Shown here: one piece after another, positions 843 through 29,847 of the stretch
How positions within the stretch are numbered: position 1 is the stretch's first letter
Layout of the letters: every line of letters starts with the position of its first letter
Assembly: GCA_963741205.1 (NCBI GenBank)
Contig: CAVUHW010000009.1
Location: 1 to 33,925 of the forward strand
Reading direction: 5' to 3'
DNA from: Nitrospirota bacterium
GTDB lineage: Bacteria > Nitrospirota > UBA9217
DNA length: 33,925 nucleotides
The notes under the pieces: model-generated
Seen by the model: the letters and a program-made list of their open reading frames with translations, nothing else
Databases searched by the model: none
What the model was told of the DNA's origin: nothing
Position numbers and translations under genes: made by a program

Positions 843-922
843 TTTTTCGGGGTAACTTTTTATCGAATACAAGGTGAAAACTGCAATTTCAGAAAGCCGC
901 AACTGTCAACGACTTCAGGATG
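843..922 (+). repeat. 46-bp-unit repeat family; intact equivalent of the IS110 target site
   Basis: 861-918 nearly identical to 13118-13175; cores TACAAGGTGA (868) and TTCAGGATGA (914) are 46 bp apart. Confidence 0.85.
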
Positions 923-946
923 ACAGTGAGACTAAACATTTCTACC

Positions 947-1000
947 AGAATAAGTCAGGCTGCCTTTCTCGGTCGGCATCAACGACACCTCCTACTAAGC
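947..1000 (+). repeat. ~50-bp imperfect direct repeat, copy 2
   Basis: aligns with 23-76. Confidence 0.7.
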
Positions 1001-1237
1001 GTCTGCTCTAACTTGAAAAACTACGAATTTCTACTTGAGCTTGCACTTGAACGCGCGGGTCATGCACCGCCTCTTTGTGTGTTACTGTGGCCCCGTTGGT
1101 TAATAGCCCCGTCAGAGGTTGTGAATACTCTACCAGTACAGCGTACGTCTGAACGACAATCCAACACTTACGAGAGACGTGCTGCCAAACCGATTCCGGC
1201 AAATATTCCTACTCTTAACCACCGAGAGAGCTGATTT

Positions 1238-1522
1238 TCAATATCCTTCGGGACACCAGCCGGCATGTCCTGCTTTAATACTTTTCAGCACATCATCCTC
1301 TACGATAATCTCCACTTTATCGCCGACTTTAAATTTATCGAGATCAATAGACTTGTCTGCCTTGAGCGTTACATCCTTCCCGCCCTCGGCGCAAAATACA
1401 ATCGTCGCTGTTTTCGTATCAACACTTTTAATGGTGCCTGTCAGTGTTGCCGCTGCAAAAGCCAGAGATACCAAGGAAATAAGCAGTGCGCATGCCGTGA
1501 ACGCTATTACCATTTTCTTCAT
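1238..1522 (-). CDS. small secreted OB-fold-like protein
   Basis: signal peptide MKKMVIAF...AFAA; GTIKSVD...KVGDKVEI pattern; GGAG RBS; directly downstream of the cytochrome gene. Confidence 0.75.
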   Translation of the reverse strand: MKKMVIAFTACALLISLVSLAFAAATLTGTIKSVDTKTATIVFCAEGGKDVTLKADKSIDLDKFKVGDKVEIIVEDDVLKSIKAGHAGWCPEGY

Positions 1523-1645
1523 TATTATTCTCCTTACAGGACCTGATGAAGCTTATACATTTCTCCTTTTCCATTGTCAGGGTTTTTCTCCAAACGCACC
1601 CCTGGTCCTGACCGGAGGCCATGAGGGTCCGATCTCGTATTCAGC

Positions 1646-2650
1646 TTACCGGCCAAGAAAGGCCTTCGGGGCTCTATATTCATGGCATGCCACACAGGTT
1701 TTCTTGGCCTGCTCGTTCGTTATTGTCCAGACATGGGGCTTGTGGCACTCCTTGCATTTCATGCCCGAATCCTGAACATGGGTCTTGTGTTTGCCGACCG
1801 CCATGATATTTTTATGGCATGAGAGGCAGTTGCCCCAGTCAGGCCGTGAGGCTTTGTGCGGCTTGTGGCATTCATAGCAGTTGAACTGCATGGGCCCGTT
1901 TTCCGGCCTGTCTATCTTTATCGCCCGGCTGGATCGTTTTTTCATCGGGCTGGAAATGGGTGACATCGAGTGTCGCGTCAGCCAGCAGTTCTTTCCTGTA
2001 TTTTTCGCGCGCCATGGCAGAAGAGGCACTTCTTCACCCCTGGTTTGAGGTCTTTTGTCCTGTCCGTATGGCAGTTGAGGCACGCAAGCTTCTCCATCCC
2101 TGTTCCGTGCACTTCTTTGTCCTTGTGGCAGGTCAGGCAATATCTTTCCTCGAGGCTGAACTGATGGGTCCGGTAGCCGTGACATTTTGTACATTCGATC
2201 TTTTCCATAAAGACATGCTTTGCGTGGTATCTCGAATTGGCTATGTTCGGCGCGTTCGGCTCTTTATCGTTCTTTTCCCAATGGCAGGAAAAGCATGATC
2301 TTCCACGGCACGATAACTTCACCGTGCCGGGGTGAAACCTTGTTATGGCCGAGCACGGCAAAATTGTAGACCTGTCTCATCTGGTCGAGCTTGGTGGAAT
2401 GGTGGCACTCATGGCAGTTTAGTCCATGATGTACGCTGGTCGACCATGCCTTGTTTGCGGCATCATGAACGTGACAGGTGGAGCATGCCTTGGGATCGTT
2501 CTCGAAATAATCGTTGATCTTATAGGCTGTAAAGAGGGACCCTAGTGAAAATATGATCAAGACTGCGATGATGATGATTCTGGCTCTGCTTGAAATGCCT
2601 GTGCTGAACCACTCACCTATTCTTTTGATAATTGAAAATGGATTGAACAT
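1646..2650 (-). CDS. membrane-anchored multiheme cytochrome c (NapC/NirT-like N-terminus, 11 CxxCH), frameshifted
   Basis: N-terminal TM helix then CSTCH, CHECH, CFSCH, CTKCH, CLTCH, CLNCH, CLFCH, CYECH, CLSCH, CKECH, CVACH across three overlapping ORFs; GGAGG RBS; frameshifts near 2297 and ~1920-2010. Confidence 0.85.
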
Positions 2651-3281
2651 GAAAAAAGCCTCCCTTGAGATCTGCTGCAAATTCTTATAGCTGTGCCAGT
2701 TATTGGTAAATGAAGAGGGGCAACAAGAAGTGTCATATTATTGCAACAAGATGCTGGTTGTCAAGGAATAATTGGAATTTGCTATGACCCGAATCAGCTT
2801 CCGACGCCTTAAATATGCCGATGATCCCCAAAACATTCGGCCTATCAGCACGCCATCCCGCATTGCTGCTTTCTGTTCCTGCCACATCATCTCTTCCTGT
2901 ATCGGTGACGTAGAGGATGAGCGGTAAATGAATGGAGATCTCCACAAAATACAATTGCACATGTATCAGCTCTCAGCATTCAAACTCGCAACAATTTCCG
3001 GAATTATTTTATAACGGGTCAATAATTTTCTCAATAAGTGATACAATCAATACAAGAGTAATTTAGTGCTGTATCGCTTGCTATGCGTTTTGTTCGCGGA
3101 TTGGAGATTGTAGAAAGTGTCGTTCAGGGTAAGCGGGAAGAAGGAACAACAATTATTTCGAGATGGAGAAAGTGCGGGAAGTGCTCATTATAACACACAC
3201 TTGGACCGAGCCTCTCATCCAATCATGGGGGCCAGTCAGCAGAACCGTCCAAGGCAGCTTGGCTTTTGATTGGAGGAAGAT

Positions 3282-4661
3282 ATGGATAACGGAAAGAGGT
3301 TGTTAATGAGCAAAGCGATATTATCAGAAATAAATGAGTACCCCGACGAGGCGCCTGAAGAAGTGATGGAAGAACTCGCGGACGAGCTGGCGGAAGAAGA
3401 GGAAGAAGAGCCTGCTTCGGCCGAAATCGCCGAGATTGGAGCGGAAGAGTTCGTCGGAGGCGTCGATCTGGTTGATTCCTACCTGAAGTCCGTAGGCAGA
3501 TTCCCCATGCTCAAGCTCGAACAAGAGCAGGAGTATGTCCGTATTCTCGAGGAAGGCAGGAGCGCGCTCAAAGCGATCGCGCTCAGCTCTCCCCTGGCAA
3601 TTCCGCGGGTCCTTGCGCTCGGCGCCAATATCGAGCAGGGGCTGGTCAAGGCGAAGGATGTACTGCGTTATCCGGGTGAATGGAACAACGCGTATGAGGC
3701 CGCTTTCATGCGCCTGCACGAGAGGCTCAAAAGACAATTCAGCCTACGCGATATGGTGGGGGCGACGGCTACTCTCAATGAAATGAGCCTCTCGTTCCGG
3801 GAGATAGAAAAGATGCTTAAGAAGCTCGTCACTATGGCAAAACACGCGGAGAGCGGCAATACCGCGGAGTTGGAAAAAATCAACATAGACCAGTTCACGC
3901 TTCGGGACATAGTCAACCGTATCGAGCTCGAGGAGGAGAGGGCAAAACAGGCCAAAGACGAACTGATCAAGGCCAATCTCAGACTGGTTGTTTCCATTGC
4001 CAAAAAGTATGCGAACCGCGGCCTTACCCTGATCGACCTCATCCAGGAAGGCAATATGGGTCTTATGAAGGCGGCGGACCGTTATGAATCGGGCAAGGGC
4101 ACCAAATTCAGCACCTATTCTTCGTGGTGGATCAGGCAGCGCATCATGCGCGCCATCCTTGATCAGGCGCGCACTGTCCGTCTGCCAGTACACCTTATCG
4201 AGGAAAGCACCAGAATCAGCCGTATTTATACCAGATACATGCGGGAAAAGGGCCGGGAGCCGGCAGCCGAAGAGATCTCAAAGATCCTGGGCTTGTCCGT
4301 CGCGCGGGTGAACGAAGTCCTTCGGGCAATCCAGCAGCCGGTGTCCCTGGAAACGCCCATCCTTGCCGAGGAGAAGGAGCTGAAGGATGTCATCATCGAT
4401 GAAAAATCGATTTCGCCTTTTAAATGCCTGGAGAACAGCGAGGCGTCCAGTTGCATCGAGGATGTGCTTGCCTCGCTGACGGACCGCGAAGAAAAGGTCA
4501 TCCGCATGCGCTTTGGCATCGGGGTTGGAAACGAATACACCCTTGAGGAAATTGGTAAATATTTCAAGCTGACAAGGGAACGCATCCGTCAGATCGAAAT
4601 CAAGGCCTTGAAAAAGCTCCGCCATCCTGCGCGCAGAAAACTGCTGCTGGAATACGCATAG
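3282..4661 (+). CDS. RNA polymerase sigma-70 factor, RpoD-like
   Basis: ANLRLVVSIAKKY, DLIQEGNMGLMKA, KFSTYSSWWIRQ, TLEEIG...TRERIRQIE; GGAGG RBS before ATG 3282. Confidence 0.93.
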   Translation: MDNGKRLLMSKAILSEINEYPDEAPEEVMEELADELAEEEEEEPASAEIAEIGAEEFVGGVDLVDSYLKSVGRFPMLKLEQEQEYVRILEEGRSALKAIALSSPLAIPRVLALGANIEQGLVKAKDVLRYPGEWNNAYEAAFMRLHERLKRQFSLRDMVGATATLNEMSLSFREIEKMLKKLVTMAKHAESGNTAELEKINIDQFTLRDIVNRIELEEERAKQAKDELIKANLRLVVSIAKKYANRGLTLIDLIQEGNMGLMKAADRYESGKGTKFSTYSSWWIRQRIMRAILDQARTVRLPVHLIEESTRISRIYTRYMREKGREPAAEEISKILGLSVARVNEVLRAIQQPVSLETPILAEEKELKDVIIDEKSISPFKCLENSEASSCIEDVLASLTDREEKVIRMRFGIGVGNEYTLEEIGKYFKLTRERIRQIEIKALKKLRHPARRKLLLEYA

Positions 4662-4751
4662 GTTTTGGCCGTGACACCGGGTGAGGGTATTAAAGTGCCT
4701 CTGGTTTCCGGAGGTTCAAGAAAACGCTTTGCCTATTGTTGTGGGATTAAC

Positions 4752-4810
4752 AAATTCGACAGGAAACGTATAAATTCGATAAATCTAAACGATTGCGACG
4801 TTCAGGATGC
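4752..4810 (+). repeat. 46-bp-unit repeat family copy
   Basis: aaattcgacaggaa (core 4755) and TTCAGGATGC (4801), spacing 46. Confidence 0.55.
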
Positions 4811-4856
4811 TAAATTCGCTGAATATTACGATCGCAAATATGGTTCTCTCAAACCG

Positions 4857-4894
4857 AAAAGAGCCTTCCAACCCGAGGTCAGAAGGCCCTTTTA
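4857..4894. terminator. probable bidirectional intrinsic terminator
   Basis: aaaagagccttc...gaaggccctttt hairpin between convergent sigma factor and HU genes. Confidence 0.65.
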
Positions 4895-4921: not shown

Positions 4922-5209
4922 TTATTTCTTCCCCAGGATCGCATCCTTTGCGGCCTTGGCAACCCGAAATTTGACAACCTTCTTCGCGGGAATTTTGATG
5001 GCCTCGCCGGTCTGGGGGTTCCTGCCCATGCGGGCCTTGCGCTGAACGAGCACGAGCTTCCCAATGCCAGGAAGTGTAAATGAGTTCTTTGCTTCCTTGT
5101 AGGCTATTTCAGCAATGTGAATAAGTATGTCACTCGCTGCCTTCTTGGTGATTCCGGCTTTCTCAGAAACACGCGTTACTAATTGAGCCTTGGTCATTGC
5201 TTTTGCCAT
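4922..5209 (-). CDS. hup: HU family DNA-binding protein
   Basis: MTKAQLV...RKARMGRNPQTGEAIKIPAKKVVKFR; GGAGG RBS. Confidence 0.95.
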   Translation of the reverse strand: MAKAMTKAQLVTRVSEKAGITKKAASDILIHIAEIAYKEAKNSFTLPGIGKLVLVQRKARMGRNPQTGEAIKIPAKKVVKFRVAKAAKDAILGKK

Positions 5210-6569: not shown

Positions 6570-6604
6570 TTTCAGCGGTGGATTATTTGTGAGGTGCGTT
6601 AATT

Positions 6605-6646
6605 AATTCGAGATGAAGTGCGCAGATCCACGATTTGCATTTGACG
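6605..6646 (+). repeat. 45-bp-unit repeat family copy, left part (interrupted by the intron; continues at 7311)
   Basis: joining 6605-6646 to 7311-7325 restores a close homologue of 9828-9884. Confidence 0.85.
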
Positions 6647-7310
6647 ATCGCGGTAGGGATGCCCGTTACCGGCACCCCCGCACAGAACCGTGCGAGAAGG
6701 GTTACTTCACACGGCACCTACCTTGGGTAAATGACGCAAGACCGCTTGCAGACTACGACCTCACGTATCCTGTCAAGTCCGTTCAATTGCTTTCCCCGTC
6801 TCTGTGTACAGGTCGCAGACGACTTTCCAGAATTCCCCTTGGTCATCAGCCTTCCCTCCGGAACCTCCGCAACGAGTGAGGACACCTCGTATTGTTCGGC
6901 CCCTTCTTCGGTACTACGCCGATGTCAGACTGCTCGGCAGCGTGCATGTAAGGATTACGGCCACTGGCCTTCCCTTACCGTCCCGCCGATATTCCGGTCG
7001 GGAACTGCTGAGCTCTCCCGGTTCTCGAGCATAGAGTGTCCACGCATGCACAGGGTCTTCGACTCCGCGGGGCCGAACAGCAACTTGCTGTTAGCGCGCT
7101 GTTCGTGGTGCCTTCCCGATAGTTCAACTCGGTCGGCGCCCCGGACTCCAGATTTCGGAGCTCAATGGCTGGCCTACGTTTCCCCTGTCAACGCTTCACG
7201 TGCGGTCTCACGATCGCCCGCGCATGACTCGGGGCCATGATGGATCAGCTCGTCCTTTCATGTAGGGGACTTGCACCCCCTGCTCTATGCCGGTTTATCC
7301 CGGCGCTTTC
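6647..7310 (-). mobile_element. ORF-less group II intron (class E-like)
   Basis: minus strand: 5' GAAAGCGCCGGGATAAACCGGC...GGGGGTGCAAGTCCCCT; domain V GTGCCGTGTGAAGTAACCCTTCTCGCACGGTTC; domain VI ending CCCTACCGCGAT; EBS1 UGAACU (7121-7126) complementary to exon end AGUUCA. Confidence 0.92.
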
Positions 7311-7525
7311 TGAACTTCAGGATGATCTTCACACGGAACGTTTCGTTCGGAAGTTTTTATCCTTCAGCGTAAGTGCCCTTCTCGATGAACACCTACAACT
7401 GTTTTATCTCAATCGTACGCAACAGTCATCATGGCGGAGTGTAGGGTGCATATGAACGCACAACTGACTCATCGGTCGGGTTAATCAGCCCGACGGCGCC
7501 GAACTATTGGTTTGGATTGTCTATA

Positions 7526-7768
7526 TTAGGCCTTCACAGATAGGGTCCAGAGCGTCTCTGGTGCGATATCGATATTCCCCGGCCAAATGACAGTACCATA
7601 TTGGACGGACGCCTTAAAGAATAGCGGAGAATTGAAAAGTTTGACAAAGGGCTTTCTGTCGAAAAAGGGTTTCATGTCGAATATTCGTTGTTCTCCATTC
7701 TCAAAAACAAGCTCTAAAGTGTAATCTTCCCTAGTTTTTACGCTGACGACATCAAGTAGCGCTTCCAT
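7526..7768 (-). CDS. DUF2442 family protein (putative antitoxin)
   Basis: DYTLELVFENGE.RIFD...WPGNIDIAPETL. Confidence 0.88.
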   Translation of the reverse strand: MEALLDVVSVKTREDYTLELVFENGEQRIFDMKPFFDRKPFVKLFNSPLFFKASVQYGTVIWPGNIDIAPETLWTLSVKA

Positions 7769-7779
7769 AATATTCTCCT

Positions 7780-8049
7780 TTATTGAAGCGGCGCGATACG
7801 AAACGGCTCGTCACCAGCAACGGCGAGTTCCCAGTCTGCCATGAGTTCATCCCTATGAATATCAATCCAGACCTGCACCATTCGAAGTTGGCGAGGTGGA
7901 AAGTCTCCCGCAAGAACACGTCCGTCATCAATGGCTATCGAAACCTTTTTTCCTTGATATCGCGCGTGAATGTGCGGTGCATGATGTTGTTCGTTATCCT
8001 CATAAAAAATTGAAATAAGAATTCCGAAGAACATCGAGATTGTTGGCAT
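7780..8049 (-). CDS. DUF4160 family protein (putative toxin)
   Basis: MPTISMFFGI...HHAPHIHARY...IHRDELMADW...IAPL. Confidence 0.92.
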   Translation of the reverse strand: MPTISMFFGILISIFYEDNEQHHAPHIHARYQGKKVSIAIDDGRVLAGDFPPRQLRMVQVWIDIHRDELMADWELAVAGDEPFRIAPLQ

Positions 8050-8080
8050 TATTGCTCCTTCCTATCGATATTATAACATG

Positions 8081-9649
8081 TTACCGATATTTTGGATCTT
8101 TGCAATTGTTGCTTTCACTGAAGACCGAGCACACTACTTCCTCACCCCATATTTTTTTGCCTGCACGCTTTGGGTTTTCTAAGAAAGCCTGATTACGCTC
8201 GGTGAAATACCTATCTATTGCGAACTTGCACTCATCAACAGATTGATAGTCACTGTTGTGAATGACTGCCTTGGCCATGCCACTAAAAACGGATTCGATC
8301 ACATTTAAAAATTGCGCGCTCGAAGGAAGCGGGGCAAGTTCCACAAGTGGGGTATGATTTCTGTCTCTATATGTAGGTTCATTTACCTCTGTGACTTTTT
8401 CATAGAGTTTTTTGGAAGCGTGCCAAGAGGCCGCATCCCAGGAAAAATAAATTCGTTCTTCATCCGTGTATTTGGAAAGGAGAATTTCCAGTAATCTTAT
8501 CATTTCGGCGGTATTCTTTTTGCCGGAATAAAAGTGAGTAACTTGATTTGTGGTTAATTCTAATGCTGCAGTGCAGATAAGGCTGCCTTTACTCTTTTGC
8601 AATTGGGGTATTGTTCGCGTTTGATCTTTCGGGAAAAAAGCCCGCCCACCACGGATTCTAATTGCGACAGGACCAAACTCGTCGATGGAGAAGAACTTTT
8701 CGTTTTGTTTAAGACTGGAAAGAATATTGGTAATCTTTTTCAGCTTGGTACGATATTCTGGATCGGGACTTGTCAGAACCGTTCTTGCTTTCTTGAATGC
8801 ATAACCTTCTGAACGAACATATTCAGATATCATGGTTTTGCAAATTGTCTCACTATAAATATTTGAATATGCTTGTACTAACGTTTTTAAGCTCCAAGAG
8901 GTTCGATTGATATTATGGAGTGAAGGCGCTTCATGTATTAACTTGATTATTCGGTCCTTTTTGAGCTTAATGTTGTTAACTACCTGTTCTGGACTCTTTC
9001 TTGTCCTATGCAAGTCGAGATGCTCTAATCCTTTGTCTATAAAAACTGCATACCACTTTTTAATGGTCTTGCACGACCTTTCTATTTTCCTGCTTATTTT
9101 GGTTATCTGGCCTCATTTAAGCAAATCTAACAGGGCTACGGCTCGTTCCCATTTGCTCCGACTGTTCGAGGACCTCCATGCTCTCAGAGTTTTTTCAGTA
9201 TCCTTGGACACGTCTTTAATTTGCCATTTGTTGAATTTGACCTTAGCAAATCCATTCTTCCTGCGCCAGTTATGATAGAGAGAGACAAAATGTGAATATT
9301 TGAACCCCAAAGGCTCACTTTGATGATACTCATGCCAAAGAGTTATCAGGTTTGTATTTTCGTTTTCGAGGCGTTGATGGAATTGAAAAAGGCGATCAAT
9401 TAAACGGGCTTGTCTGACATTTTCGCAAATATTCTTCTGCGGCTTCAAGGAAGCCGCAACAATATTTGCAGACTGATTAACAATGTCAGTGTGAACAAGG
9501 TCGGAACTGTTGTACATTTTAATGTACGAGCGGACAGTAGATCGCGCGATTTTAAATGATCGTGCTATGGATGTAACACCAGCACCTTGAATAGCATGCT
9601 GGATTATCATACCTTTTATTTTCCCTGGGCTGATGCTTTTTTGAGTCAT
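8081..9649 (-). pseudogene. IS630-family DDE transposase with IstA(IS21)-like N-terminus; one in-frame TGA
   Basis: FSIDEFGP, WDAASWH, AQFLNVIESVF; ORFs 9113-9649 and 8081-9013 are in the same frame, separated only by TGA at 9113-9115. Confidence 0.85.
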
Positions 9650-9827
9650 GGCATGAATCCCGATAAGTTTAAAAAGTTAAGCAATGATTAGGCCATGTCG
9701 GTTTCAATATTTATGACGAATATATTACTGATTCATGGCGATGTCAATGATAACGATTGAGCTAGTCAACAATGGGGTTATCGAAAAGGACTGTCGATAT
9801 CGAAAAGGACAACGATGAGGTTTGTCA

Positions 9828-9885
9828 AATTCGGGATGAAGTGCGCAGATCTGCGATTAGCAATTGGCGTGAACTACAGGATGGA
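9828..9885 (+). repeat. 45-bp-unit repeat family, intact unoccupied copy
   Basis: TTCGGGATGAAGT-N30-ACTACAGGATGGA; cores at 9830 and 9875. Confidence 0.85.
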
Positions 9886-9930
9886 GGGCTCGATGAAAGT
9901 TACAAATGGCAATTGTGATTCTTCTGCGCC

Positions 9931-9994: not shown

Positions 9995-10079
9995 CGCATG
10001 AGTCATTACATGTCAGGATCATGACAAGACTCACGATAACCGATTCTTCGCTCTTGTTTGACACAGCTTCTATAACATA

Positions 10080-10694
10080 TCACGGATTAACGTCATTTTG
10101 GGTACGAACTATAAAATGCATGTCCTCAAGTGCATCAAAAATATCCTTTCTAAGGTGATCTGAGTCGTCAGCCGAAACTGTGAAGACCCCCATAATTTTA
10201 GCGTCTTTTATTCTCGTGAACTTAACAGTACCTTTATAACGGATCAACATTGTTTCTACTATGTAATCCGTATTGATTTCCCCGTTGGTAATATATTTTT
10301 CCACGCTTGTCGCTTGAATCTCCTCTCTCTGGACTCGCGCATTTGATTCGCTTGAAGCATCACTGTCATGTACTACTCCAGCGCCTTTCCTTTTCTCCAC
10401 CATTTTTGTGCCTCGAGGGGCCGCAACGAGATTTAGACCCGCTTTGAGTAGAACGCTTTCTACGTATGCTGCGAATTCTATCTGGTTCATATAATCATTG
10501 AAAGGGATGACCGTAAATTTCGCGTCATCATTAACGGATGCAACATATTTTGGCTCGGGAAGTGCCGGCGGAGGATTAGTAATCCGCCGCATGCTCTGGC
10601 AACTGCACAATCCTATCAGTAGTCCAATTAGAAGCAGCTTTCTCATAAGTGACAAGAACAGTCGCCTCATTCTGATCATCTGTATGTAACTCAT
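10080..10694 (-). CDS. hypothetical lipoprotein
   Basis: LLLIGLLIGLCSC lipobox-like sequence; AGGAGG RBS. Confidence 0.75.
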   Translation of the reverse strand: MSYIQMIRMRRLFLSLMRKLLLIGLLIGLCSCQSMRRITNPPPALPEPKYVASVNDDAKFTVIPFNDYMNQIEFAAYVESVLLKAGLNLVAAPRGTKMVEKRKGAGVVHDSDASSESNARVQREEIQATSVEKYITNGEINTDYIVETMLIRYKGTVKFTRIKDAKIMGVFTVSADDSDHLRKDIFDALEDMHFIVRTQNDVNP

Positions 10695-10801
10695 GTGCAA
10701 TTCCTCCTATAGCGTATGCGTATGATGGATGTGTTCCTCTCGCTGGCGACATCCGTTATTGGTTTTTAACGATTTCAGAGTTCATTTTGATAATTTCCCA
10801 C

Positions 10802-10860
10802 TCATAACGTCGCCGTGAGGAACGCAGCTCTCAGCGTCTCTCTCGACGGCGTTGTTAATG
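10802..10860 (-). other. solitary integron attC-like site
   Basis: minus strand: cattAAC-aacgccgtCgag...ctcacggcgac-GTTatga; 59-bp hairpin with one extra base in the L box. Confidence 0.65.
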
Positions 10861-11190
10861 TTATCACTTTTTTTCTAGGCTGTCTGCCCTTTTAATATAT
10901 TCATCGGAATTTAGAGGGTCAGGTCCTTTGTATTGGCCTCTGGATTTCTAAGCGCCCTCGTTAGTGATATATGCCAATACTCGTTCAACGCGTGTCTGCG
11001 GATTGCCTGAAACCTCCAGCACATCCACCTCTTAAGCTATTATAGCAACTTTAAAAGATGCGCCTTTGTCCTAGCGACCAGTTTATGATAAAAAGTATTT
11101 AAGAGAATACAGTGACGGCATGCATATGGGGGAGGAATTCGCCGTCTGCAGGGGAAAAGGTGAACGCCACAAGGATAGTCTAGGATATCA

Positions 11191-11247
11191 GATTCGAGGT
11201 GAAGTTGATAGTTTAAGCATCATTGCTGAGCGAGAACTTCAGGATGC
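11191..11247 (+). repeat. 45-bp-unit repeat family copy
   Basis: TTCGAGGTGAAGT-N30-ACTTCAGGATG; cores at 11193 and 11238. Confidence 0.8.
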
Positions 11248-11388
11248 AGGCTTGAAATAATACTTCAACTGGAAAGCGTCACGTCGGTCACGGGCATCTG
11301 ACATAATTTTTCTCGGTCCTTGCTTGTATTTCCATTTGTACGGGGTAAACTGATAGTAACTCAAGCATTTCACCTAAGGAGGTACCAC

Positions 11389-12002
11389 ATGAACTTTACA
11401 ACCGCTTTATCTTTTTTGTCTCGTGATTTTTGCAAGATATTCCTATTCTTTATTACCGCAACTGTTACACTTGCCGCGTTGACGATGTCAGCTGTCGGTG
11501 CCCCGAAGGAAGGGGCTGGCCCCATGTTCACCAAAGATGGGGAACTGCTTATGCCGAAGTATTTCCGGCAGTGGGTCTTTGTCGGAGCCCCTGTGACCCC
11601 AAACGATATGAACAATGGAAGTGCGGCGTTCCCTGAATTCCACGATGTCTACATAGACCCGATCAGTTTCAACGCATACCGCAAGACCGGCAAATTCCCC
11701 GACGTACCATTTTCGTTAAGGAGCTTGCATCGGTCGGCGCAAAGAGCGCCGCCAGCGGAAACGGTTATTTCCCAGGAGAATTCATCGGCGTTGCAATGGC
11801 GGTGAAGGACTCGAAGAGATTTGCCAAAGAACACGGCAATTGGGCCTATTTCAAATTCATAGGGGCTGACGGCAAAGCGCTAGCCGAGGCCAAGATGCAG
11901 CCGACCGAAAACTGCAACGAGTGTCACCAGAAGAATGCCGCTGAGGACTGGGTTTTCACCCAATTCTATCCTGTCCTCCGCGCAGCAAAAGCAACCAAGT
12001 AA
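11389..12002 (+). CDS. cytochrome P460 family protein, frameshifted near 11704
   Basis: WVFVG..VTPNDMNNG.A.FPEFHDVYIDP; second frame VKELASVG..SGNGYF..AVKDSKRF..GNWAYF..CNECH..DWVFTQFYPVLR. Confidence 0.9.
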
Positions 12003-12303
12003 CCTCCTTTAACATTTCTAAGATCAGCATCTCGGGAAACCTTCTCTCTCGATGCAGCTTGTTTGAAAAACTCGTTCTGAGAAATCGAGATATCTAATAA
12101 GACCTTCAATGAATTGAAGCCCATCATGACTGGTGGATGGGGGGACTCGTTCGATAAGCTTCAAACTTTGCTCAAGTTAAAAAAATAAGCCGGAACTAGT
12201 AGATGAGGCAGATCGAGGTTGAGACGGCCAATGGGAAGAACGTGGCCTAGGCCTGTCGAGCTGCCAGCATCACCGATCAAACTCTCTAAAGAAAGGAAAC
12301 CCC

Positions 12304-12954
12304 ATGCCTAAACTCGTCGTTCGCAGCTTCGCCATCTCTTTGGACGGCTTCAGCGCCGCTCCCGGGCAAAGCCAGGAAGAGCCTTTTGGCAAGGACGGCC
12401 TCAAACTCATGAACTGGGTCTTTGCCACCAAGTTCTTCAACACCATGTTCGGCCGGCCCGGAGGCGTCGAGGGCATCGACAACGACTTCATGGCCAAGTC
12501 TGATGACAACATCGGCGCAAGCATCATGGGCCGGCATATGTTCGGCCCGCCGCCTGATGCCAAGGACAAAGAAGCCTGGAAGGGCTGGTGGGGCGAGAAC
12601 CCGCCTTATCACCATCCGGTCTTCGTGCTGAGCCATCAAAAGAAGGCCTCCTTTGACATGAAAGGCGGCACCAGCTTCAACTTTGTGACGAACGGCATCG
12701 ATTCGGCCCTGAAACAGGCTTTTGCTGCGGCCAAAGGCAAGGACGTGCGCCTGGCCGGCGGCCCGGCCACGGTGCGCCAGTACTTGAAGGCGGGCCTGAT
12801 CGACGAGCTGCACCTGGTGCAGGTGCCCCTTTTGATGGGCCAAGGGGAGCGCATTTTCGAGGATGTGGGCGGAGTGGAAAGCATCTATGAATGCGTCGAA
12901 TTCACACCTTCCAAGGCGGTGTCCCACCTCCGTATCGTTAAAAAAGCCAAGTAG
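12304..12954 (+). CDS. dihydrofolate reductase / RibD C-terminal family protein
   Basis: ISLDGF, IMGRHMF, GWWGENPPYHHPVFVLSH, GGPATVRQYLKAGLIDE. Confidence 0.92.
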   Translation: MPKLVVRSFAISLDGFSAAPGQSQEEPFGKDGLKLMNWVFATKFFNTMFGRPGGVEGIDNDFMAKSDDNIGASIMGRHMFGPPPDAKDKEAWKGWWGENPPYHHPVFVLSHQKKASFDMKGGTSFNFVTNGIDSALKQAFAAAKGKDVRLAGGPATVRQYLKAGLIDELHLVQVPLLMGQGERIFEDVGGVESIYECVEFTPSKAVSHLRIVKKAK

Positions 12955-13099
12955 GTCGCCAGCCCGGGAGTGGCCCCTGGATCCAGGGGCCATTGTTATT
13001 CATACCTTTCAGTATCCTGATCAATGGACATACGAAGCTCACATTATCGTCGCTAAAAAGTACCGTGAAAGATACGGTGAAAGGGACGAACAAAAAAGT

Positions 13100-13175
13100 A
13101 TTTTCGGGGTATCTGATTATCGAATACAAGGTGAAAACTGCAATTTCAGAAAGTTACAACTGTCAACGACTTCAG
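13100..13175 (+). repeat. 46-bp-unit repeat copy interrupted by IS110 (continues at 14791)
   Basis: near-identical to 843-918; the expected continuation GATGA resumes at 14791. Confidence 0.85.
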
Positions 13176-13255
13176 ACCTTATGATTAAAATGGCAAGTCT
13201 GACTTAAGGTATATTTTCGTTAGGAAGACCAAAATACACCGAAAGGAGACTTGCC

Positions 13256-14326
13256 ATGATTAACATTAGCAAACTCGATTTCAGCGGTCAACATATTTAT
13301 GTCGGTTTGGACGTTCATAAGAAAAGTTGGAGTGTATGCATCTTGACTCAACAGTTTGAACATAAGACCTTCACGCAGCCACCAGATCCATCGGTCCTGG
13401 CCAACTACCTGAATCGGAACTTCCCTGGTGCAACCTATCACGCCGTTTATGAAGCCGGCTATTCCGGATTCTGGATCCACGACCAGTTAAGAGAAAAAGG
13501 CATCGACTGCATAGTGGTAAATCCTGCTGACATTCCGACAACAGACAAGGAACGGGCAGGCAAAACCGATAAGGTAGATTGCCGCAAACTTGCCCGATGC
13601 CATAGAAACGGAGAGCTCGTAGGAATCTATGTTCCCACGCGGATAAAGGTCGAAGATCGCAGCTTGATTAGAACCCGACGAAACATGGTCAAGAAGCAGA
13701 CCCGGTGCAAGAACCAGATCAAGTCCATGCTCGCTTTTTATGGCATTCATCTACCCACTGACATTGTTACCCGTAACTGGTCAAGCAAGTTCATTAAATG
13801 GCTTGAAGCGATTCGCATGGAAAAGGCTAGCGGCAATGTCTCCTTTATGGTGCATCTCCAAGAGTTACACCATATCCGGGGAATCGTCGTCGAATTGAAT
13901 CGGAACATTCGCGTCCTCTCTCGGTCAGATGAATATAAAGTTAATGTGAAATTATTAAAAACCGTATCGGGGATCAGCACACTCACCGCTATGACATTTC
14001 TCACGGAGCTGTGTAATATCGATCGGTTTGGATCACTCGACAAACTTGCGAGCTATGTCGGTCTCATTCCCAATACGGACTCCAGCGGAGAAAAGGACAT
14101 AACAACAGGCATTACCAACCGACGCAACCAATCACTTCGGCATTTGATTATTGAAAGCTCGTGGATTGCTACACGGAAAGACCCGGCATTACTTATGGCC
14201 TTTGAACGCCTCTCTAAAAACATGCCAAGAACAAGGGCCATCGTTCATATCGCCAGAAAACTATTGAATCGAATCAGATACGTCCTGAAGAATCAGAAGG
14301 AGTATGTGCCTGCGGTTATACAATAA
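13256..14326 (+). CDS. IS110 family transposase/recombinase
   Basis: YVGLDVHK, YEAG, KTDKVD (DEDD set), YVGLIP...SSG, ARKL. Confidence 0.96.
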   Translation: MINISKLDFSGQHIYVGLDVHKKSWSVCILTQQFEHKTFTQPPDPSVLANYLNRNFPGATYHAVYEAGYSGFWIHDQLREKGIDCIVVNPADIPTTDKERAGKTDKVDCRKLARCHRNGELVGIYVPTRIKVEDRSLIRTRRNMVKKQTRCKNQIKSMLAFYGIHLPTDIVTRNWSSKFIKWLEAIRMEKASGNVSFMVHLQELHHIRGIVVELNRNIRVLSRSDEYKVNVKLLKTVSGISTLTAMTFLTELCNIDRFGSLDKLASYVGLIPNTDSSGEKDITTGITNRRNQSLRHLIIESSWIATRKDPALLMAFERLSKNMPRTRAIVHIARKLLNRIRYVLKNQKEYVPAVIQ

Positions 14327-14329
14327 GAA

Positions 14330-14640
14330 ACGGGATCACGTTAGAGCGGTCGATCTTAGAACCTGATTCATCGTGGGTACCGCTTTGTTCCATCCTGCAG
14401 CCGGCTCATGAAGCGTGTCTGCACTACTACAGACTGCGGACCCACAACTTTAAAATATGATCAAGGAAATGCAGCTGCCTTTAATGATGTAGGCATGTCT
14501 GCTAATAAAAGCGTGGTTTTAAAGATTTGTCCGTTCTGCGAACAAATCCCGAGAAAGGATCCTACGGGGGGTATCAGGATATGGACTGCCCCGGGAAAAT
14601 CGATCCTGGGGCATTTGTGAGAACCGATTTCTGCCCCAAC
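14330..14640 (+). ncRNA. candidate bridge/seek RNA
   Basis: non-coding right end with stacked hairpins; internal loop carries TCCATCCT (14389-14396) and ACTACAG (14426-14432), matching both strands of the target motif; transcript limits are a guess. Confidence 0.65.
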
Positions 14641-15085
14641 AAAGAAAATTCTCACAAACGATCAATGCAGGGGGGGAATCCTCCGACTGGTACACTTTCA
14701 ATGACCATTAACGAAAACAAATAGCAAACAGGGAAAAACCTATCGGCCAGCCTGTTTAGTCTGAGCCAGGCTTGACTTTTAACATAAAAGGATGAAAACG
14801 AGGATTGTTTATACTTTTTAATATTGCGGAATTGTGGTTGGATTCTACACGTCTCAATTTTTGCAATTGTCGCAGACAACAGGAAGGTTGTTGATGTGAA
14901 ATGCCTCTCAGATGTAGTACACTTTTCAAGACCGGAGGCGTTCATTTTCTCATGACCGGGGAATGATGGAATGAAAGAAATCCTCGTTTTGGTTCCAATG
15001 ACCTTCGGGTGACTGGACCCGAAGGGGTGGACATTCCGAATGACTGACTTCGGATTATTCGATTAATTTTCGTTTAATGGTGTGC

Positions 15086-20228: not shown

Positions 20229-20525
20229 TTAAGTGCTCGATGAAATTAGTCGCCGTTTCCAGGGCGATGTAATTGAATCTCGAATGGCTGACCACCCGAG
20301 TGGCAGGTCAGCCAGTTCGACTACACTGGAGTCACAATAAACGATTTCATCCAGTGCGGCGATCTTGGCATCAGATGCTAGAACTGTTTTCCCCGTGTGA
20401 AATTGCCACGCCCCATCGTCTTGATCGTGCGTGACAAGTAAGATAGGCTTATCTCTTTCGATAACGTCCCTTGTTGTAAAAATTATCGTCCTGCGCGCGT
20501 CTGTAAAAGGCCATTTTGTTTTCAT
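20229..20525 (-). CDS. hypothetical protein (DUF2185-like)
   Basis: WPF...PILLVTHD.DDGAWQF...ELADLPLGW.A.R...PW. Confidence 0.75.
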   Translation of the reverse strand: MKTKWPFTDARRTIIFTTRDVIERDKPILLVTHDQDDGAWQFHTGKTVLASDAKIAALDEIVYCDSSVVELADLPLGWSAIRDSITSPWKRRLISSST

Positions 20526-20544
20526 AATCTCGTCTGGCGGATAG

Positions 20545-20721
20545 TTACACCGTCGGCATCCCTTTCTCGAGCACCAGATCAATAGAACAGCCGAGACTTA
20601 AGGTGGTTAAAGCAGCGGCCTCCTGTCCGACCTGGTACACGCGGAATTCCTTTCGTCTCAACATCATCGAAAGAGCCTTTCCTCCTCCAAGGTTCTCGTC
20701 AAGCACAAGAATGGTCTTCAT
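20545..20721 (-). pseudogene. truncated response-regulator receiver fragment
   Basis: MKTILVLDEN...IDLVL..GMP then stop at about half a domain. Confidence 0.5.
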
Positions 20722-25268: not shown

Positions 25269-26479
25269 TTAAAAAGATGGCCAGAGAGGCCGAAAAGAAG
25301 ACGGCGCTTCTGGGGCCCGACATCGACCTTTCCGCCTACACGAGCGAGGCGGAGGAACTCGGAAGGGTGGGCGCGCTGAGGGAGCTTCCGCCGGACGTAC
25401 AGGAGAGGGCACATGGCGCCGGAGTGGACGCGTGCGAGACAGGCAAGGCCGGTTCGTTTTTCCAGATCGATAACTCGGTGATGTTTACTTCGGCGCTCGA
25501 TCCCGGCCTCGAGGTGATGAGCATCACGGAGGCGCTCGAAAAATACGGCTGGCTCCGGGATTACTGGTGGCGGGCGGTGCGCGTTGACGCGGACAAGTAC
25601 ACGGCGCAGGCAGAGCTCAATCTTCATCACGGGTACTTCATCAGGGCTCTGCCGGGGGCCAAGGTCGCCGTTCCGGTGCAGGCATGCCTGTATCTCAACC
25701 GGGAGATGTTTTCCCAGAACGTGCACAATATCATCATTGCCGAGGAAGGCTCGGAACTTCACATCATCACGGGCTGTACCACGGGCAGCCACATCAAAAG
25801 CGGCGTCCACATCGGCATATCCGAGTTCTACATCAAAAAAAACGCACATCTTTCCTTCAGCATGATCCACAGCTGGGCCGAGGAGGTCGCGGTGCGTCCC
25901 CGCTCCGGAGCCGTCGTCGGGGAGGGCGGCGTGTTTTTAAGCAATTACATCTGCATGAAACCCGTCAAGTCACTCCAGATGTTCCCGGTCGCCTCTTTGA
26001 TCGGCAAAGGCGCGGTCGCCAGGTTCAACAGCGTCCTCTGGGGCCAGGAAGGATCCTGCATGGACGTGGGAAGCAGGGTCATCCTCTCCGCGCCCGCATC
26101 CCGCGCCGAGGTCATTGCGCGGACCATAAGCTCGGGCGGCGACATCGTCTCGCGGGGACACCTCGTGGGAGATGCGCCGGGCATCAAGGCGCACCTTGAA
26201 TGCAGGGGGCTGATCCTCAGGGAAGGCGGCAGGATCTACGCCGTCCCCGAACTAGAAGGCAAGGTCCCCAACATCGATATGTCGCACGAGGCGGCCGTGG
26301 GAAAGATAGCCGAGGAGGAGATCCAGTATCTCATGTCGCGAGGGCTGACCGCGGAGGAGGCGACCGCCGCCATTGTGCGCGGATTTCTGGACATCGAGAT
26401 CAAGGGGCTTCCCGAGCAGCTCCAGGAAGAGATCAGAAAGTCGATACGGACGGCGGAAGAAGGTGAACGGCTCTTGTGA
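25250..26479 (+). CDS. sufB: Fe-S scaffold SufB/SufD-family (SmsB)
   Basis: HLECRGL, VPELEG, SHEAAVGKI, YLMSRGL...IVRGF; overlaps sufC. Confidence 0.9.
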   Translation: MPEPEMIKKMAREAEKKTALLGPDIDLSAYTSEAEELGRVGALRELPPDVQERAHGAGVDACETGKAGSFFQIDNSVMFTSALDPGLEVMSITEALEKYGWLRDYWWRAVRVDADKYTAQAELNLHHGYFIRALPGAKVAVPVQACLYLNREMFSQNVHNIIIAEEGSELHIITGCTTGSHIKSGVHIGISEFYIKKNAHLSFSMIHSWAEEVAVRPRSGAVVGEGGVFLSNYICMKPVKSLQMFPVASLIGKGAVARFNSVLWGQEGSCMDVGSRVILSAPASRAEVIARTISSGGDIVSRGHLVGDAPGIKAHLECRGLILREGGRIYAVPELEGKVPNIDMSHEAAVGKIAEEEIQYLMSRGLTAEEATAAIVRGFLDIEIKGLPEQLQEEIRKSIRTAEEGERLL

Positions 26480-26999
26480 AGAATTAAATAATCGACAGTA
26501 GAGTTATTGCCATGGCTGGTTCACTGCGAAAAGAATACAAACGACCGGATAGAGAAGGTGCCCGGTTCGTCATCGATTGGGAGCATACCTTTGGTGTAAT
26601 GACGGATTTTGTCGCAATTATGGACACCCAGCTTTCCTTGTTTAAACGTTTATGCGCCGGTCACTCATGTAACTTTTATATTGATTATCATCATTCAGTT
26701 TAATCCCGCCGTTAATCCCTCTGTTTTTTCTCCGGACATAATATCTGTAATAAAGTGAATAGTTGCGCAAGCTTGAAATTGACGATTTCTCATGCCAGTG
26801 ATTTAATGTAGTTGTCCCCGATAAAGCCAAACTATTCGCAAAAGGTAGAGTGGAACTGAGAGTCTTAAAAACGAAATACAGCAGGGCTGCCGAGAAAAAA
26901 ACAAGACCGACTTTTTCTTGAGCAATACGAGCGAACAGTCTCGTTTCAATGTCATGTGGTCCCTTTTCATCCAGAAACCAGTGGAGGAGGTGCAAGGTC

Positions 27000-29137
27000 A
27001 TGAGGAGACTCCCGTTGATGATCATGGCAGGTATTCTCTTGGGTGCATTGGCTTCCCTGTATATCGCATCATGCGGGGGCGGAGGTGGTGGTGGAAATGA
27101 CATTGCCGTAGATCAGGGACCGCCAAGTGGTGTTGGAACCGGGGCGGACAGCGCCACGATCTTCTGGTACCCGTATGACGCCAACATCGCCGTCGGTGGG
27201 GGAACCTCGGTTCAAGAGACCAGCGACCACGGCTTCATCGTAGCCGGATCCCAATCGTCGGATTTCTCCTCTCCACTTGATGTATTCCTTATGAAGACCG
27301 ACGCTAAGGGCGCGACCCAGTGGAAGAAGCGTATTGCAGAGACAGGAAGCGCGACAGCAAATGCCATAAGAGAAACCAGTGACGGCGGCTATATCGCCGC
27401 AGGTCGGGCAAAGACGGCTGCGGGCGGTGACGATGTTTACCTGCTCAAAATTGACGCTTCGGGAAACACCGTTGCGGGCTGGCCGAAGACCTACGGAGGA
27501 ACGGGGGACGATGTCGCATATGCGGTATTGCCGGTAAGTGACGGTTACATCATAGCCGGGGCCAGAAATGTGGGATCCTCGGTAAATAGCTCTATGTCAT
27601 TCGTACGGACTTGGCAGGTTCTGTTGTGTGGGAAAAATTCGACTATGCAAGTTTCTGCGCCTGGAGGAAGCGAGTTCGGCCGTGACATTGCTGCCACACC
27701 TGACGGCAACATTGTGATTGCCGGCTACACCGGCTGTTTTGGGTGGAAGGGATTCCTTCTCAAGATTGACAGCCAGGGGACTGAACTCTGGCGAAATGCC
27801 TACAATACGCTCCTCGACAGACTTTGAAACCATCTCCTCGATCGCTGCGCTTCCTGACGGGTTCGTCCTGGCGGGTTCTCACGGTGTAGTAAGCGGACAA
27901 CCGCCGGCCACGGGTCCGCTCGACGCGCTTGTTATCAAAACCGACGCGAGCGGCAAAGAGATCTGGCGCCAGACCTACGGCGGCGCTGGGCGGGACGAAG
28001 CGCAGGGAGTAATACTGACCCAGGACGGCAATTACATGATTCTCGGTACAACTCAGTCCTATGGCGGACAAATTAGTGCGAATGCTGACGGCGACTTTCA
28101 ATTGGAGGATCTGTTCCTGATCAAGGTGGATACGAACGGCAATACGCTCTGGCAGAAGGTCAAGGGCAATCGGCCGACGGTGAGCGACCACGGCGGCGCC
28201 ATCTGCGCAGTATCAGACGGAGGATTTGCCGTCACCGGCAGCAGCGATGGTAACGTGCTCCTCGCCAAGCTCGACAAGAATGGCGACACCATCAACCTCG
28301 GTGAGACCGACCTGACCATCAGCGTTCCCGCCACTACGGGCACTATCAAGTTCGACAACGCCATCGAGGTGGCGGCTGCCGCCGTGTCGGGTCTTACCAA
28401 ACCGCGTCAACTCGGCTCAACAGCGCTCGATCTGCTGATCGCCAGACTCAAGAACGATCCGGTCACGAACTTCTGCAGCACTGGCACCTACACCTTCAAT
28501 CCCTTGCCGACGGATCTCGCTGCAGCCCGGGACTTCGTTCGATGTGACGTTCACTGGCTGTCTCACGGGTCAGGCCACGATCAACGGCGGTATCACCGTC
28601 ACGCTTGATGGGGTCACCGGAGATCCGCGGTTGTCGAACTATACCCTTCAGACGACACTGACCTCGATCAACCTAACGATCGTCGATTCCGTCGGGACGA
28701 GCACCATGGCTGGCGGGATGCATTTCCAGCGAGTGGCGGCAGGCGGCACGTTCACCGAACTCGCACGGTCCATTGATACGCCGGTGCAGCAGGCGTTCAC
28801 ATGGAGCGAGAGCAGTGCAACGATAAACCGCACGCACGCCATCGGACCATTCTCTGTCAGTGCAACTGTTACTAACACGAGCTTCAGCCTTGGTTCGACA
28901 ACTGATACGCTGACGGTGGACTCCGGGCTGGGGCCGCTCGTAGTGACAGTAGCGCAGCCGCTTCAAGGAGGGGCATTGGTCACTGCGCCAACCTCCGGAG
29001 CATTCAAGGTAGTTGCGACTGACGGTAGCCAACTGACCGTCACCGTGACGAATGGCGTGGCCGCTTCAGCTGTGGATACGAACGGTGACGGGTCGGTCGA
29101 CGGGACAATCTCGGCTCCGTGGGACGCCCTTGACTAA
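27000..29137 (+). CDS. large lipoprotein with beta-propeller-like repeats, two frameshifts
   Basis: lipobox IASC then poly-Gly; repeated T.DGG...G / L.K.D..G...W..TYGG; frame changes near 27815 and 28530. Confidence 0.78.
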
Positions 29138-29443
29138 ATGCGGCGAGTTCGGGACGGTGCAGCACAAAGGCTTCTTTGTGATGGTATTGCGAGCGGCAGA
29201 TCAGTAATCGCAGCAGTCGTGGAGTGCCTCGGGACAACGGGTCTGCCGCCGCCAGCTTAATCCTGCAAATCGGAAGATTCCTAGAGGATTTACTTATCCC
29301 CCCTAGGGCCCCTCTTTCAGGATTTGCCGTATTAACGGCAATGGGTGGATGTGCCGCTTATGCGCGCTTCTTCTCGATTTTCTCATCCATTTTCGAATCA
29401 AATTTATCTTTTATTTTGAATGGGTTTGTCGTTCTTCGACATT

Positions 29444-29492
29444 CTCGTGGTCATCGACAACAAGCATGGAATGTCAATGTTGTGACAAGGGT
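29444..29492 (+). repeat. second repeat subfamily copy
   Basis: ctcgtggtcatcgacaaca...caatgttgtgacaaggg aligns with 9931-9984. Confidence 0.7.
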
Positions 29493-29782
29493 GTAAAAAA
29501 ACCAGTATCATGCACTGAACGATGAATCGAATGAGTGCCTAAAGTCGATATGGTTTAAACATCCGGTAGGCCCTCTGCAGCGGAATGGCTCCTGTCCGCC
29601 AACTCAAAGACCGGTCTCATTGTGTACTATTCTTCCCACAACGGCTCCTTTTTGGGTAACTGTTTTTGTCGGCAAACAAAATGTTACCATTTTAGGGGCA
29701 GCTACTCAAAATTTCAAATAAATATAGAACTGAATCACACCTTGAGGCGTCAAGCATTTCGACTGGTTTTTTATGGGTAGGC

Positions 29783-29847
29783 ATCAACGACTACGGGTTG
29801 ATAATTGAAGCATTTCAGAGAGTGATAACTCACCAGCTTGAGGATGT
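29783..29847 (+). repeat. 46-bp-unit repeat family copy
   Basis: caacgacTACGGGTTGA (29792), gcatttcagagagt, TTGAGGATG (29838); spacing 46. Confidence 0.65.

Follow-up and report, generated by a model that had tools for sequence, protein, structure and literature searches.

Integrons are, to our knowledge, the only well-understood system in which single-gene modules are accumulated and rearranged at sites dedicated to this purpose. Crossover at their attC sites falls in the 3'-terminal R' box, between G and TTRRRY, and nearly the whole site stays with one cassette. Repeats of other kinds serve as targets of mobile elements, repetitive extragenic palindromic (REP) sequences for IS621-like elements and the dRS3/NIME repeats of Neisseria for Piv-like enzymes, and the IS110 family of insertion sequences (IS) uses a core dinucleotide. 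The attC site is described as an imperfect palindrome which forms a hairpin as single-stranded DNA, with R and L boxes (PMC4889954). Here, we describe a repeat of about 110 base pairs (bp) in a contig of 33,925 nucleotides (nt), hereafter the window, which is the whole of contig C9 of an uncultured Nitrospirota. The genome (G000) is a fragmented metagenome-assembled genome (MAG) of 4.27 Mb in 50 contigs, 84% complete and with 4.9% contamination. An earlier note on this DNA had proposed tandem recombination sites of an integron-like cassette system. Our best reading is that the repeat is a double-strand exchange and insertion site bounding hypervariable gene modules, and that its arrays resemble an integron cassette array in layout without being one.

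In the window, the motif TWCRRGRTG is matched exactly at 15 positions (12 on the + strand), against 4.11 ± 2.09 in dinucleotide-preserving shuffles (none of 100 reached 15), and three same-strand exact pairs lie 44-48 nt apart, compared with 0.005 (maximum 1) across 200 shuffles. The cores are real and exceed chance by far. Ten of the 15 cores listed in the earlier note are exact (868, 914, 4801, 6607, 7316, 9830, 9875, 11193, 11238, and 13125), three are degenerate copies (4755, 29792, and 29838) and the one at 13171 is split by an IS, while the core at 7363 falls outside the family, a third core at +47 showing no enrichment over 37 aligned sites. Iterated nhmmer searches seeded with the seven window copies (S1 to S7, Table 1) recovered 45 copies in the genome, and 37 uninterrupted genome copies make up alignment A1, in which core 1 stands at -45/-46 from core 2 in 21 copies. 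The two cores of a pair are not the tandem equivalent recombination sites that they had been taken for. Instead, they belong to blocks A and C of a single tripartite site of about 110 bp, completed by a block E and by spacers B and D, as is seen in flank-extended copies, where conservation reaches about 45 nt beyond core 2. Block A (approximately TTAACAAATTCGACATGAAGT) includes core 1, block C (GAACTWCAGGATG; GAACTWC-AG-GATG) includes core 2 (CTWC-AG-GATG), and block E approximates CGCTGAAnnTTwCrA..GGAA. Both spacers are variable in sequence, B with a length of 28-29 nt and D with 7 nt in 37/37 copies, and the span from C to E is 39 nt in 35 of the 37. Mean pairwise identity across these copies is 0.62 for A, 0.39 for B, 0.80 for C, 0.31 for D, and 0.53 for E. 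Conserved blocks held at constant spacing by free spacers point to a protein-binding, double-stranded site.

Symmetry plays a smaller part in the repeat than had been supposed. TTCAG in block C and CTGAA in block E are mutually inverted with a 13-nt gap, but beyond CTTC-AG-GAWG there is no conserved helix or palindrome. The long symmetry stems from one copy read over an IS (13157-13175 joined to 14790-14810), and the analogy with serine-recombinase att sites was based on that same reconstructed copy. The RCAAYTG box, likewise offered as a family feature, lies in the variable spacer B of some subfamilies only. Eight sites also carry a conserved non-coding extension of about 160 nt, from -215 to -55 of core 2, with a sharp start at about TGTGCACGCC (C41:2891, C5:14180, C45:2565, C41:6259, C45:17458, C15:185835, C11:49103, and C41:209). 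It holds no open reading frame (ORF) on the site strand, the only strand translated, no Rfam match and no consensus fold. Furthermore, a 22-nt box (about TTTCTCGGTCGGCATCAACGAC) recurs near the contig start (42-63), 45 nt past S1 (965-986) and directly before S7 (29770-29791), which suggests that right site parts can hold the start of another left part and that the contig starts just past a site.

For searches of the genome, genus, family, and phylum we used R1, a sequence-only covariance model, which gave 62 matches in the genome and 66 in a scan of 12 array stretches. As had been claimed, the sites lie on the + strand of the window (8/8 R1 matches) and mostly outside genes, with 41 of the 45 genome copies being intergenic by crude longest-ORF calls. 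Across the 12 stretches, 65/66 matches are co-oriented within their own contig. Sites follow one another every 0.7-3 kb, with 12 in 15 kb on C41 and 15 in 30 kb on C5; many array contigs are short, with a site at their start or end, so assembly has probably split what were one or a few large arrays. Both neighboring genes are opposed to the site in 16 cases and run in its direction in three. The claim that the sites separate functionally unrelated modules also holds, the co-oriented arrays being filled with unrelated, hypervariable genes, and in none of the 14 other genus genomes searched (G000 included) does a 7.2-kb array of the near-complete relative G001 find a match of module length. R1 matches occur in all 14 other genus genomes and in 24 of 36 family genomes, where divergent subfamilies are undercounted because the model was built from this genome, and in none of 24 genomes from eleven other families of the phylum. 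In these scans, the repeat is confined to one bacterial family. In the near-complete genomes G001 and G002, copies are also dispersed over the chromosome.

DNA exchange at the cores, as had been expected, is supported by breakpoints that map to a fixed point in core 2. When 800-nt flanks were compared all-against-all by BLAST, with the register set on core 2, flank homologies that ran for 224, 219, 215, 110, 85, 84, and 75 nt stopped at 0/+1, where CAGGATG has its last G, and further homologies started at -12 to +6 and then ran downstream. Sites with parts from different copies are found: C34:83912 matches S5 in its left part and S2 in its right part, and C10:72382 matches S7 on the left and C15:185835 on the right. 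Identity between the left part of S5 and C34:83694-83912 is 96-97% and is lost after 11246; between that of S7 and C10:72382 it is 96% and is lost 9 nt past the core. The part of S2 right of the core recurs in C45, C41, C6, C34, and C48, always starting at the core. Within the window, S1 and S6 share 92% identity over 75 nt and the left half of S3 is 86% identical to S4. A module with cytochrome P460-like and RibD_C-like genes (11241-13106) recurs at 96% identity behind an unrelated, degenerate left part at C49:8437-10304; identity begins inside AGGATG, and spacer D goes with the module. No RNA dataset was listed as matching the window, and the DNA datasets share at most 10% of its words. Metagenome evidence comes from assembled Logan contigs of run X1, each with small shares of the window and read only for the parts covered, and these part from it exactly at 4809, 11246, and 14795 to continue into other D/E blocks. 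Across copies, how similar two sites are in B bears no relation to how similar they are in E (Spearman 0.01). Taken together, the flank, module, and metagenome breakpoints place the junction between -6 and 0 of block C, and all sharp junctions, like all IS insertions, fall in core 2. Among the eight copies with the 160-nt extension, homologies end loosely at -30 to -49, just past core 1, which may mark a second breakpoint or merely a spacer B that is free to vary. One gene conserved at 75-87% in eight relatives is flanked by two sites in G000; at its loci in five relatives no site was found even with filters off, and its neighbors differ in every relative compared. Another repeat of about 85 nt (a perfect GC hairpin with a tRNA-T-arm-like stretch), seen in G002 (L052 2367-2450) and in many copies in G001 and G011, stands beside the variable gene that is site-flanked in G000.

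Mobile elements target the sites, as the earlier note had recognized for two of them. An intron and an IS110-family element both interrupt window sites, and a further element, IS-B, adds a third. The group II intron in S3 matches RF02005 with 178.2 bits (7273-7053, minus strand), and an intron-less allele of S3 is present in a metagenome contig. Its 5' end reads GAAAGCGCC, unlike the usual GUGYG of group II introns. The intron sits 5 nt past the partly inverted TTCAG/CTGAA pair, a helix that is not kept across copies, and it lies on the strand of most genes adjoining family copies, S3's own two neighbors being on opposite strands by the crude calls. G001 has longer intron copies, several with the same site flanks, whose insert between query positions 6739 and 6761 could hold an ORF.

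The element in S6, IS-A, combines an IS110-family transposase with a downstream non-coding region of 464 nt, an arrangement reported for the IS1111 group (PMC11187229). Sites on C41 and C5 hold full copies with 94-97% identity; a further copy (99%) is represented by its first 243 nt at the start of C36. All IS-A copies follow CTTCAG and, where the right end is present (C41, C5), precede GGATG, with the transposase gene running in the direction of the site in 3/3 full copies. The IS110-family element on C45, IS-B, is distinct from IS-A (131.6 vs. 59.6 bits to PF01548) and occupies the identical insertion position. IS-A at four sites (complete in three, represented by its start in the fourth) and IS-B at a fifth directly follow CAG, and the right junction, read for C9, C41, and C5 (IS-A) and for C45 (IS-B), is AG followed by GATG. 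These insertions, independent of each other yet alike in position, orientation, and the dinucleotide at either end, are what is expected of an IS110/IS1111 target; as read from the junctions, this fits AG as a crossover dinucleotide common to IS-A and IS-B, which may be either duplicated or IS-owned. Relatives of IS-A with at least 73% amino-acid identity occupy the same site family in other MAGs (10 loci), and relatives of 69% identity have another target, TTTATCCRCAG. The 3' non-coding region of IS-A holds TCAGGAT and CATCCTG, whose count is at chance level and whose position alone is suggestive. The only enzymes seen at the junction are IS110/IS1111-type DEDD transposases.

We tentatively favor the possibility that IS110/IS1111-type DEDD recombinases carry out or mediate the exchange, with AG as the crossover dinucleotide, an enzyme identity that we infer. 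First, an IS would enter block C at the AG. Copies residing in two different sites would then recombine, either by homologous recombination or through a transposase that pairs the left junction with a distant right junction, and precise excision of the IS would leave hybrid sites, with modules moved, deleted, or duplicated. Such a route would account for the coincidence of the junction with the IS crossover, and whole modules would move as units.

Several observations weigh against this. Targeting by IS does not explain why blocks A and E are conserved and held at fixed spacing, nor does it account for the origin of the arrays. No circular module, excision product, or module-order variant is present in the metagenome contigs, and the proposed check for core-to-core circular junctions was negative in them, as was a deletion joint at the sites; the sole long joint, which links 4799 with 13170, is due to an S2-like site that carries an IS copy and not to a deletion. 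A core boundary was seen in just one whole-module duplicate, whose other end is a deletion, while the duplicates between window 10044-10807 and C41 and between C32:6031-8520 and C45:59619-62110 have boundaries away from sites. Modules are not common to different species as units. The pile-up of breakpoints in block C may reflect its highest conservation among the blocks. Finally, with 4.9% contamination and 84% completeness, some of the "paralogues" at 95-97% identity may be strain variants, although exchange at the site would still be shown by such variants.

A true cassette platform with its own tyrosine or serine recombinase binding A, C, and E appears rather unlikely to us. Blocks C and E would be partly inverted arms around the 7-nt spacer, circular modules would integrate and excise at block C, and the IS and the intron would merely be parasites. 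Three blocks at fixed spacing with free spacers are the signature of a protein-binding assembly, and the inversion of TTCAG and CTGAA around the 13-nt gap, the sharp junctions and the hypervariable arrays of about 65 sites with many unannotatable genes all suit such a platform. It would explain blocks A and E and the origin of the arrays, and the conservation of the repeat across a bacterial family is hard to explain by IS targeting alone. However, it leaves the coincidence of the junction with the IS crossover unexplained, no circles were seen, and no recombinase gene was found in or beside the arrays examined. The earlier note had placed the recombinase outside the window; the window indeed holds none, but the array genes sampled in or beside arrays elsewhere include none either. 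Serine-recombinase matches lie away from arrays except at the start of array contig C32 (194-595), which has a twin at C8:703-1104, a pair that we took for IS-borne, judging from size only (194 amino acids). The tyrosine recombinases of the genome are an IntI on C18, two Xer-sized genes and fragments.

Described sites with dedicated recombinases share some of these features. Like Tn3-family res sites and Xer sites with accessory sequences, the repeat measures about 110 bp, has three protein-sized blocks at fixed spacing, exchanges in one of them and occurs as direct repeats. Unlike them, it has no adjoining resolvase gene, its crossover lies in the middle block, and it is present in dozens of copies per genome. 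A dif/Xer-like core was rejected: reversed, block A has TGCGCA and TGTTAA, at the wrong spacing and in one subfamily, and by eye it does not resemble the dif core consensus. Island accretion of the staphylococcal cassette chromosome (SCC) type also places tandem modules, most without a recombinase of their own, between direct attachment-site repeats. Unlike there, the modules here have no conserved-gene or tRNA anchor, are spread over many contigs, and have no linked large serine recombinase; tRNA-anchored accretion was rejected in that no tRNA genes occur in the window or in 12 further stretches (10 G000 arrays and two of G001). As for modules being IS1111-like elements themselves, no sub-terminal inverted repeats were seen by eye.

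It also seems rather doubtful that the repeat is a dispersed intergenic repeat with another primary role, whether a nucleoid or regulator site, an insulator, or a non-autonomous mobile repeat resembling REP or miniature inverted-repeat transposable elements. The repeat would then be a safe harbor for IS and introns in accessory DNA, modules would be immobile, and the junctions would stem from turnover of the left and right parts of the repeat itself. The scattered copies of G001 and G002 favor this explanation, as do homologous pieces between copies that are mostly shorter than 250 nt rather than whole modules, the 16 to three excess of opposed neighbors, which ties orientation to the neighbors, and the eight copies with a conserved non-coding extension. 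Some subfamilies also have a good -35/-10 pair and a short conserved frame after the core. Set against this are the lack of terminal inverted repeats, target duplication, or a conserved hairpin, and the tight clustering of copies, 0.7-3 kb apart, among genes absent from congeners. A general sigma-70 promoter was rejected, with good in-register -35/-10 elements in 3/37 copies only and none in the other 34, and with 22 promoter-like sites in a window scan against 18.1 expected, only S2 coinciding with one. A gene start was rejected as well: the ATG of core 2 opens frames of 3-104 amino acids (median 32) in the 37 copies and reads AAG in about half of the relatives' copies. The 104-amino-acid frame (920-1234) has no homologue but itself among 5.8 billion proteins, and no Pfam family. 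Block E shows a codon-like pattern (Leu, Ser, and Arg synonyms). A structured RNA or single-strand DNA element was set aside given that RNAalifold finds no consensus structure, folds are at shuffle level and no helix is conserved; in Rfam, the intron is the sole match in the window, and an E-value scan of three array loci with 28 R1 copies gave none for the repeat.

Among dispersed repeats, the targets of REP- and dRS3-directed enzymes come closest, being abundant intergenic repeats hit by DEDD transposases in fixed orientation and at a defined dinucleotide, as here. REP and dRS3 are short palindromes of 20-40 bp that lie scattered, whereas this repeat is about 110 bp, tripartite and non-palindromic and forms one-direction arrays at module boundaries. 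A REP/REPIN system with its REP-associated tyrosine transposase (RAYT) was rejected, since there is no palindrome and Y1_Tnp genes lie away from the listed repeat copies: Y1 transposase genes stand at C34:18326, C26:373741, and C23:5449, where no copy is listed, and two such genes of 154 amino acids, likewise on contigs or at places without a listed copy, count against a mobile repeat of this kind.

That the repeats are ordinary attC sites, in a cassette array or a cluster without an adjoining integrase (CALIN) served by the genome's IntI, is extremely improbable. The layout does agree with that of chromosomal integron arrays and CALIN: co-oriented repeats every 0.7-3 kb separate short, cassette-sized, unrelated, and variable modules, many of their genes without a known family, contents are species-specific, a group II intron and IS1111-type elements act as parasites, and the repeat has a fixed exchange point. 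Furthermore, an integron integrase is encoded on C18 (131988-132923; L009 7989-8924, minus strand) with 367.5 bits to TIGR02249, above the curated cut-off. Group II introns are named as parasites of attC in one source (PMC3001079), and another uses the term "IS1111-attC" for IS1111-type elements at attC (PMC11187229). However, the sites fail as attC. Folds of 12 copies as DNA range from -5 to -15 kcal/mol with no common structure, and bottom-strand fold z-scores of five window sites (+0.13, -1.15, +0.67, -1.08, and -1.86) are no better than shuffles; three stretches beside IntI, with boundaries set by eye, give -0.79, -2.60, and -1.42. A C/E helix is paired in 61.7% vs. 63.5% in shuffles and an A/E helix in 51.0-57.6% vs. 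50.5-56.9%, none of the three helices tested covaries, and when all column pairs are scanned, no helix exceeding 4 bp proves to be conserved on either strand. Instead of falling in a GTTRRRY box at the end of the site, the junction is internal: about 66 nt (blocks A-C) stay to one side of it and at least 30 nt (D-E) to the other. Unlike in attC arrays, there is no hairpin palindrome with R and L boxes, and genes mostly point against the site with mixed orientation. IIC-attC introns are described as lying opposite to the cassette genes (PMC3001079), whereas the intron here runs with the predominant direction of neighboring genes across the family.

The integrase, too, is independent of the repeat. 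Beside IntI, L009 9500-11900 holds two or three small ORFs with GC-rich palindromes between them; the palindromes, of which one ends in GTTGGGC, are other candidate sites for the enzyme. Contig C18 carries no copy of the 110-bp repeat, and the IntI locus probably represents a small integron of canonical type with no relation to the repeat of the window. In 26 genomes scored for both, IntI and the sites are distributed independently of each other (both in seven, sites only in seven, IntI only in six, neither in six), and G001 and G002, which are 99-100% complete, have sites and no IntI at E ≤ 1e-40. The integron-like mechanism of the earlier note accordingly finds no support in fold, crossover position, or integrase.

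Table 1. Copies of the repeat, inserted elements, and the duplicated module along the window.
Feature	Position	Strand	Description
S1	857-963	+	Complete A-E; core 1 868-876, core 2 914-922; R1 54.3 bits
S2	4744-4842	+	Complete; degenerate core 1 at 4755, core 2 4801-4809; R1 65.1 bits
S3 left half	6597-6646	+	Blocks A, B, interrupted by intron; R1 positions 3-52, 26.4 bits
ORF-less group II intron, 664 nt	6647-7310	-	In S3, 14 nt upstream of core 2 end; RF02005
S3 right half	7311-7366	+	Blocks C, D, E; core 2 7316-7324; R1 positions 52-108, 31.6 bits
S4	9820-9925	+	Complete; cores 9830, 9875; R1 81.4 bits
S5	11183-11281	+	Complete; cores 11193, 11238; R1 61.5 bits
Duplicated module	11241-13106	.	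Cytochrome P460-like and RibD_C-like genes (Pfam); second copy on C49
S6 left half	13115-13175	+	Blocks A, B, CTTCAG; interrupted by IS-A; R1 positions 3-62
IS-A	13176-14789	+	IS1111-like, IS110 family; transposase 13256-14326; AG at both sides; PF01548, PF02371
S6 right remnant	14790-14830	+	GGATG and atypical D/E; sequence reading, below R1 detection
S7	29782-29892	+	Divergent subfamily; cores 29792, 29838; R1 37.7 bits

The modules of the window carry genes for a cytochrome c7-like protein, an extra sigma-70, HU, rhodanese, an IS630-like element, a cytochrome P460-like protein, and RibD_C. Of 20 ORFs sampled on C41 and C5, 12 lack a Pfam family at E ≤ 0.001, and the other eight comprise CAP, a zinc-ribbon protein, HU, MscL, a kinase-like protein, GGDEF, a response regulator, and PKD. 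The sigma-70 gene (3270-4661; regions 1.2, 2, 3, and 4) lies inside a module and has 78% DNA identity to C20:306603-307934 and 73-77% to single matches listed in 13 of 14 congeners. Given the second copy and the single matches in congeners, the window gene is an extra paralogue carried by the array. Genes of the HU/IHF family occur at window 4922-5209 (minus strand), C41:11239-11526, C45:~9300-9700, and C6:~20400-20700; on C9, C41, and C45 homology begins directly after the site core, and the C6 gene is a further homologue. Most congeners have two to six DNA-level homologues, none beside detectable sites. HU/IHF as a linked accessory factor was rejected, the gene being homologous in relatives and the site flank not, with no model match nearby.

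An IS630-like element (7523-9666, minus strand; DDE_3 ORF 8081-9013 and helix-turn-helix ORF 9113-9649) fills most of the S3-S4 module and has an 83%-identical copy in the relative G003. Toward the contig end, 31749-33544 consists of eight tandem repeats of about 222 nt, each with a TGC...TGCCAC (CxxCH-type) motif, and is a predicted repetitive multihaem cytochrome gene. Elsewhere, an array module on C5 holds a c-di-GMP-I-GGC riboswitch (RF03167, 69.7 bits; L011 9083-9162), 143 nt upstream of a cytidylate-kinase-like ORF, and a 1.2-kb element on C34 (85772-86976; L021 4773-5977), with at least 18 genome copies at 88-95% identity, is probably a very active IS.

As the pattern is that of integron arrays and every attC feature tested failed, we class these loci as site-bounded cassette arrays or IS-targeted repeats. 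The papers listed by literature searches are on integrons, introns, and IS1111/seekRNA only, and none of their titles or abstract starts describes the repeat, supplements being outside the search. It is unlikely, in our estimation, that the loci constitute a previously undescribed, integrase-independent cassette platform in which modules are captured, excised, and reshuffled at a tripartite double-strand site of about 110 bp. Driven by RNA-guided DEDD (IS110/IS1111-type) recombinases or by another recombinase, such a platform would be a separately evolved integron analogue with at least 60 modules per genome.

Overall, this is a second type of site with the pattern of an integron array, in its long co-oriented arrays, species-specific genes, and intron and IS1111-type parasites, which fails the attC hallmarks tested. 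If the modules are immobile, it would be a clean case of a lineage-specific safe-harbor repeat common to three unrelated mobile elements. If the modules do move, the arrays would provide natural cases of DEDD/seek-RNA recombinases reshaping chromosomes beyond their own transposition, at a defined site of about 110 bp that is amenable to testing, and they would show that, in an uncultured phylum widespread in the environment, genome plasticity based on cassettes can arise by an independent route.

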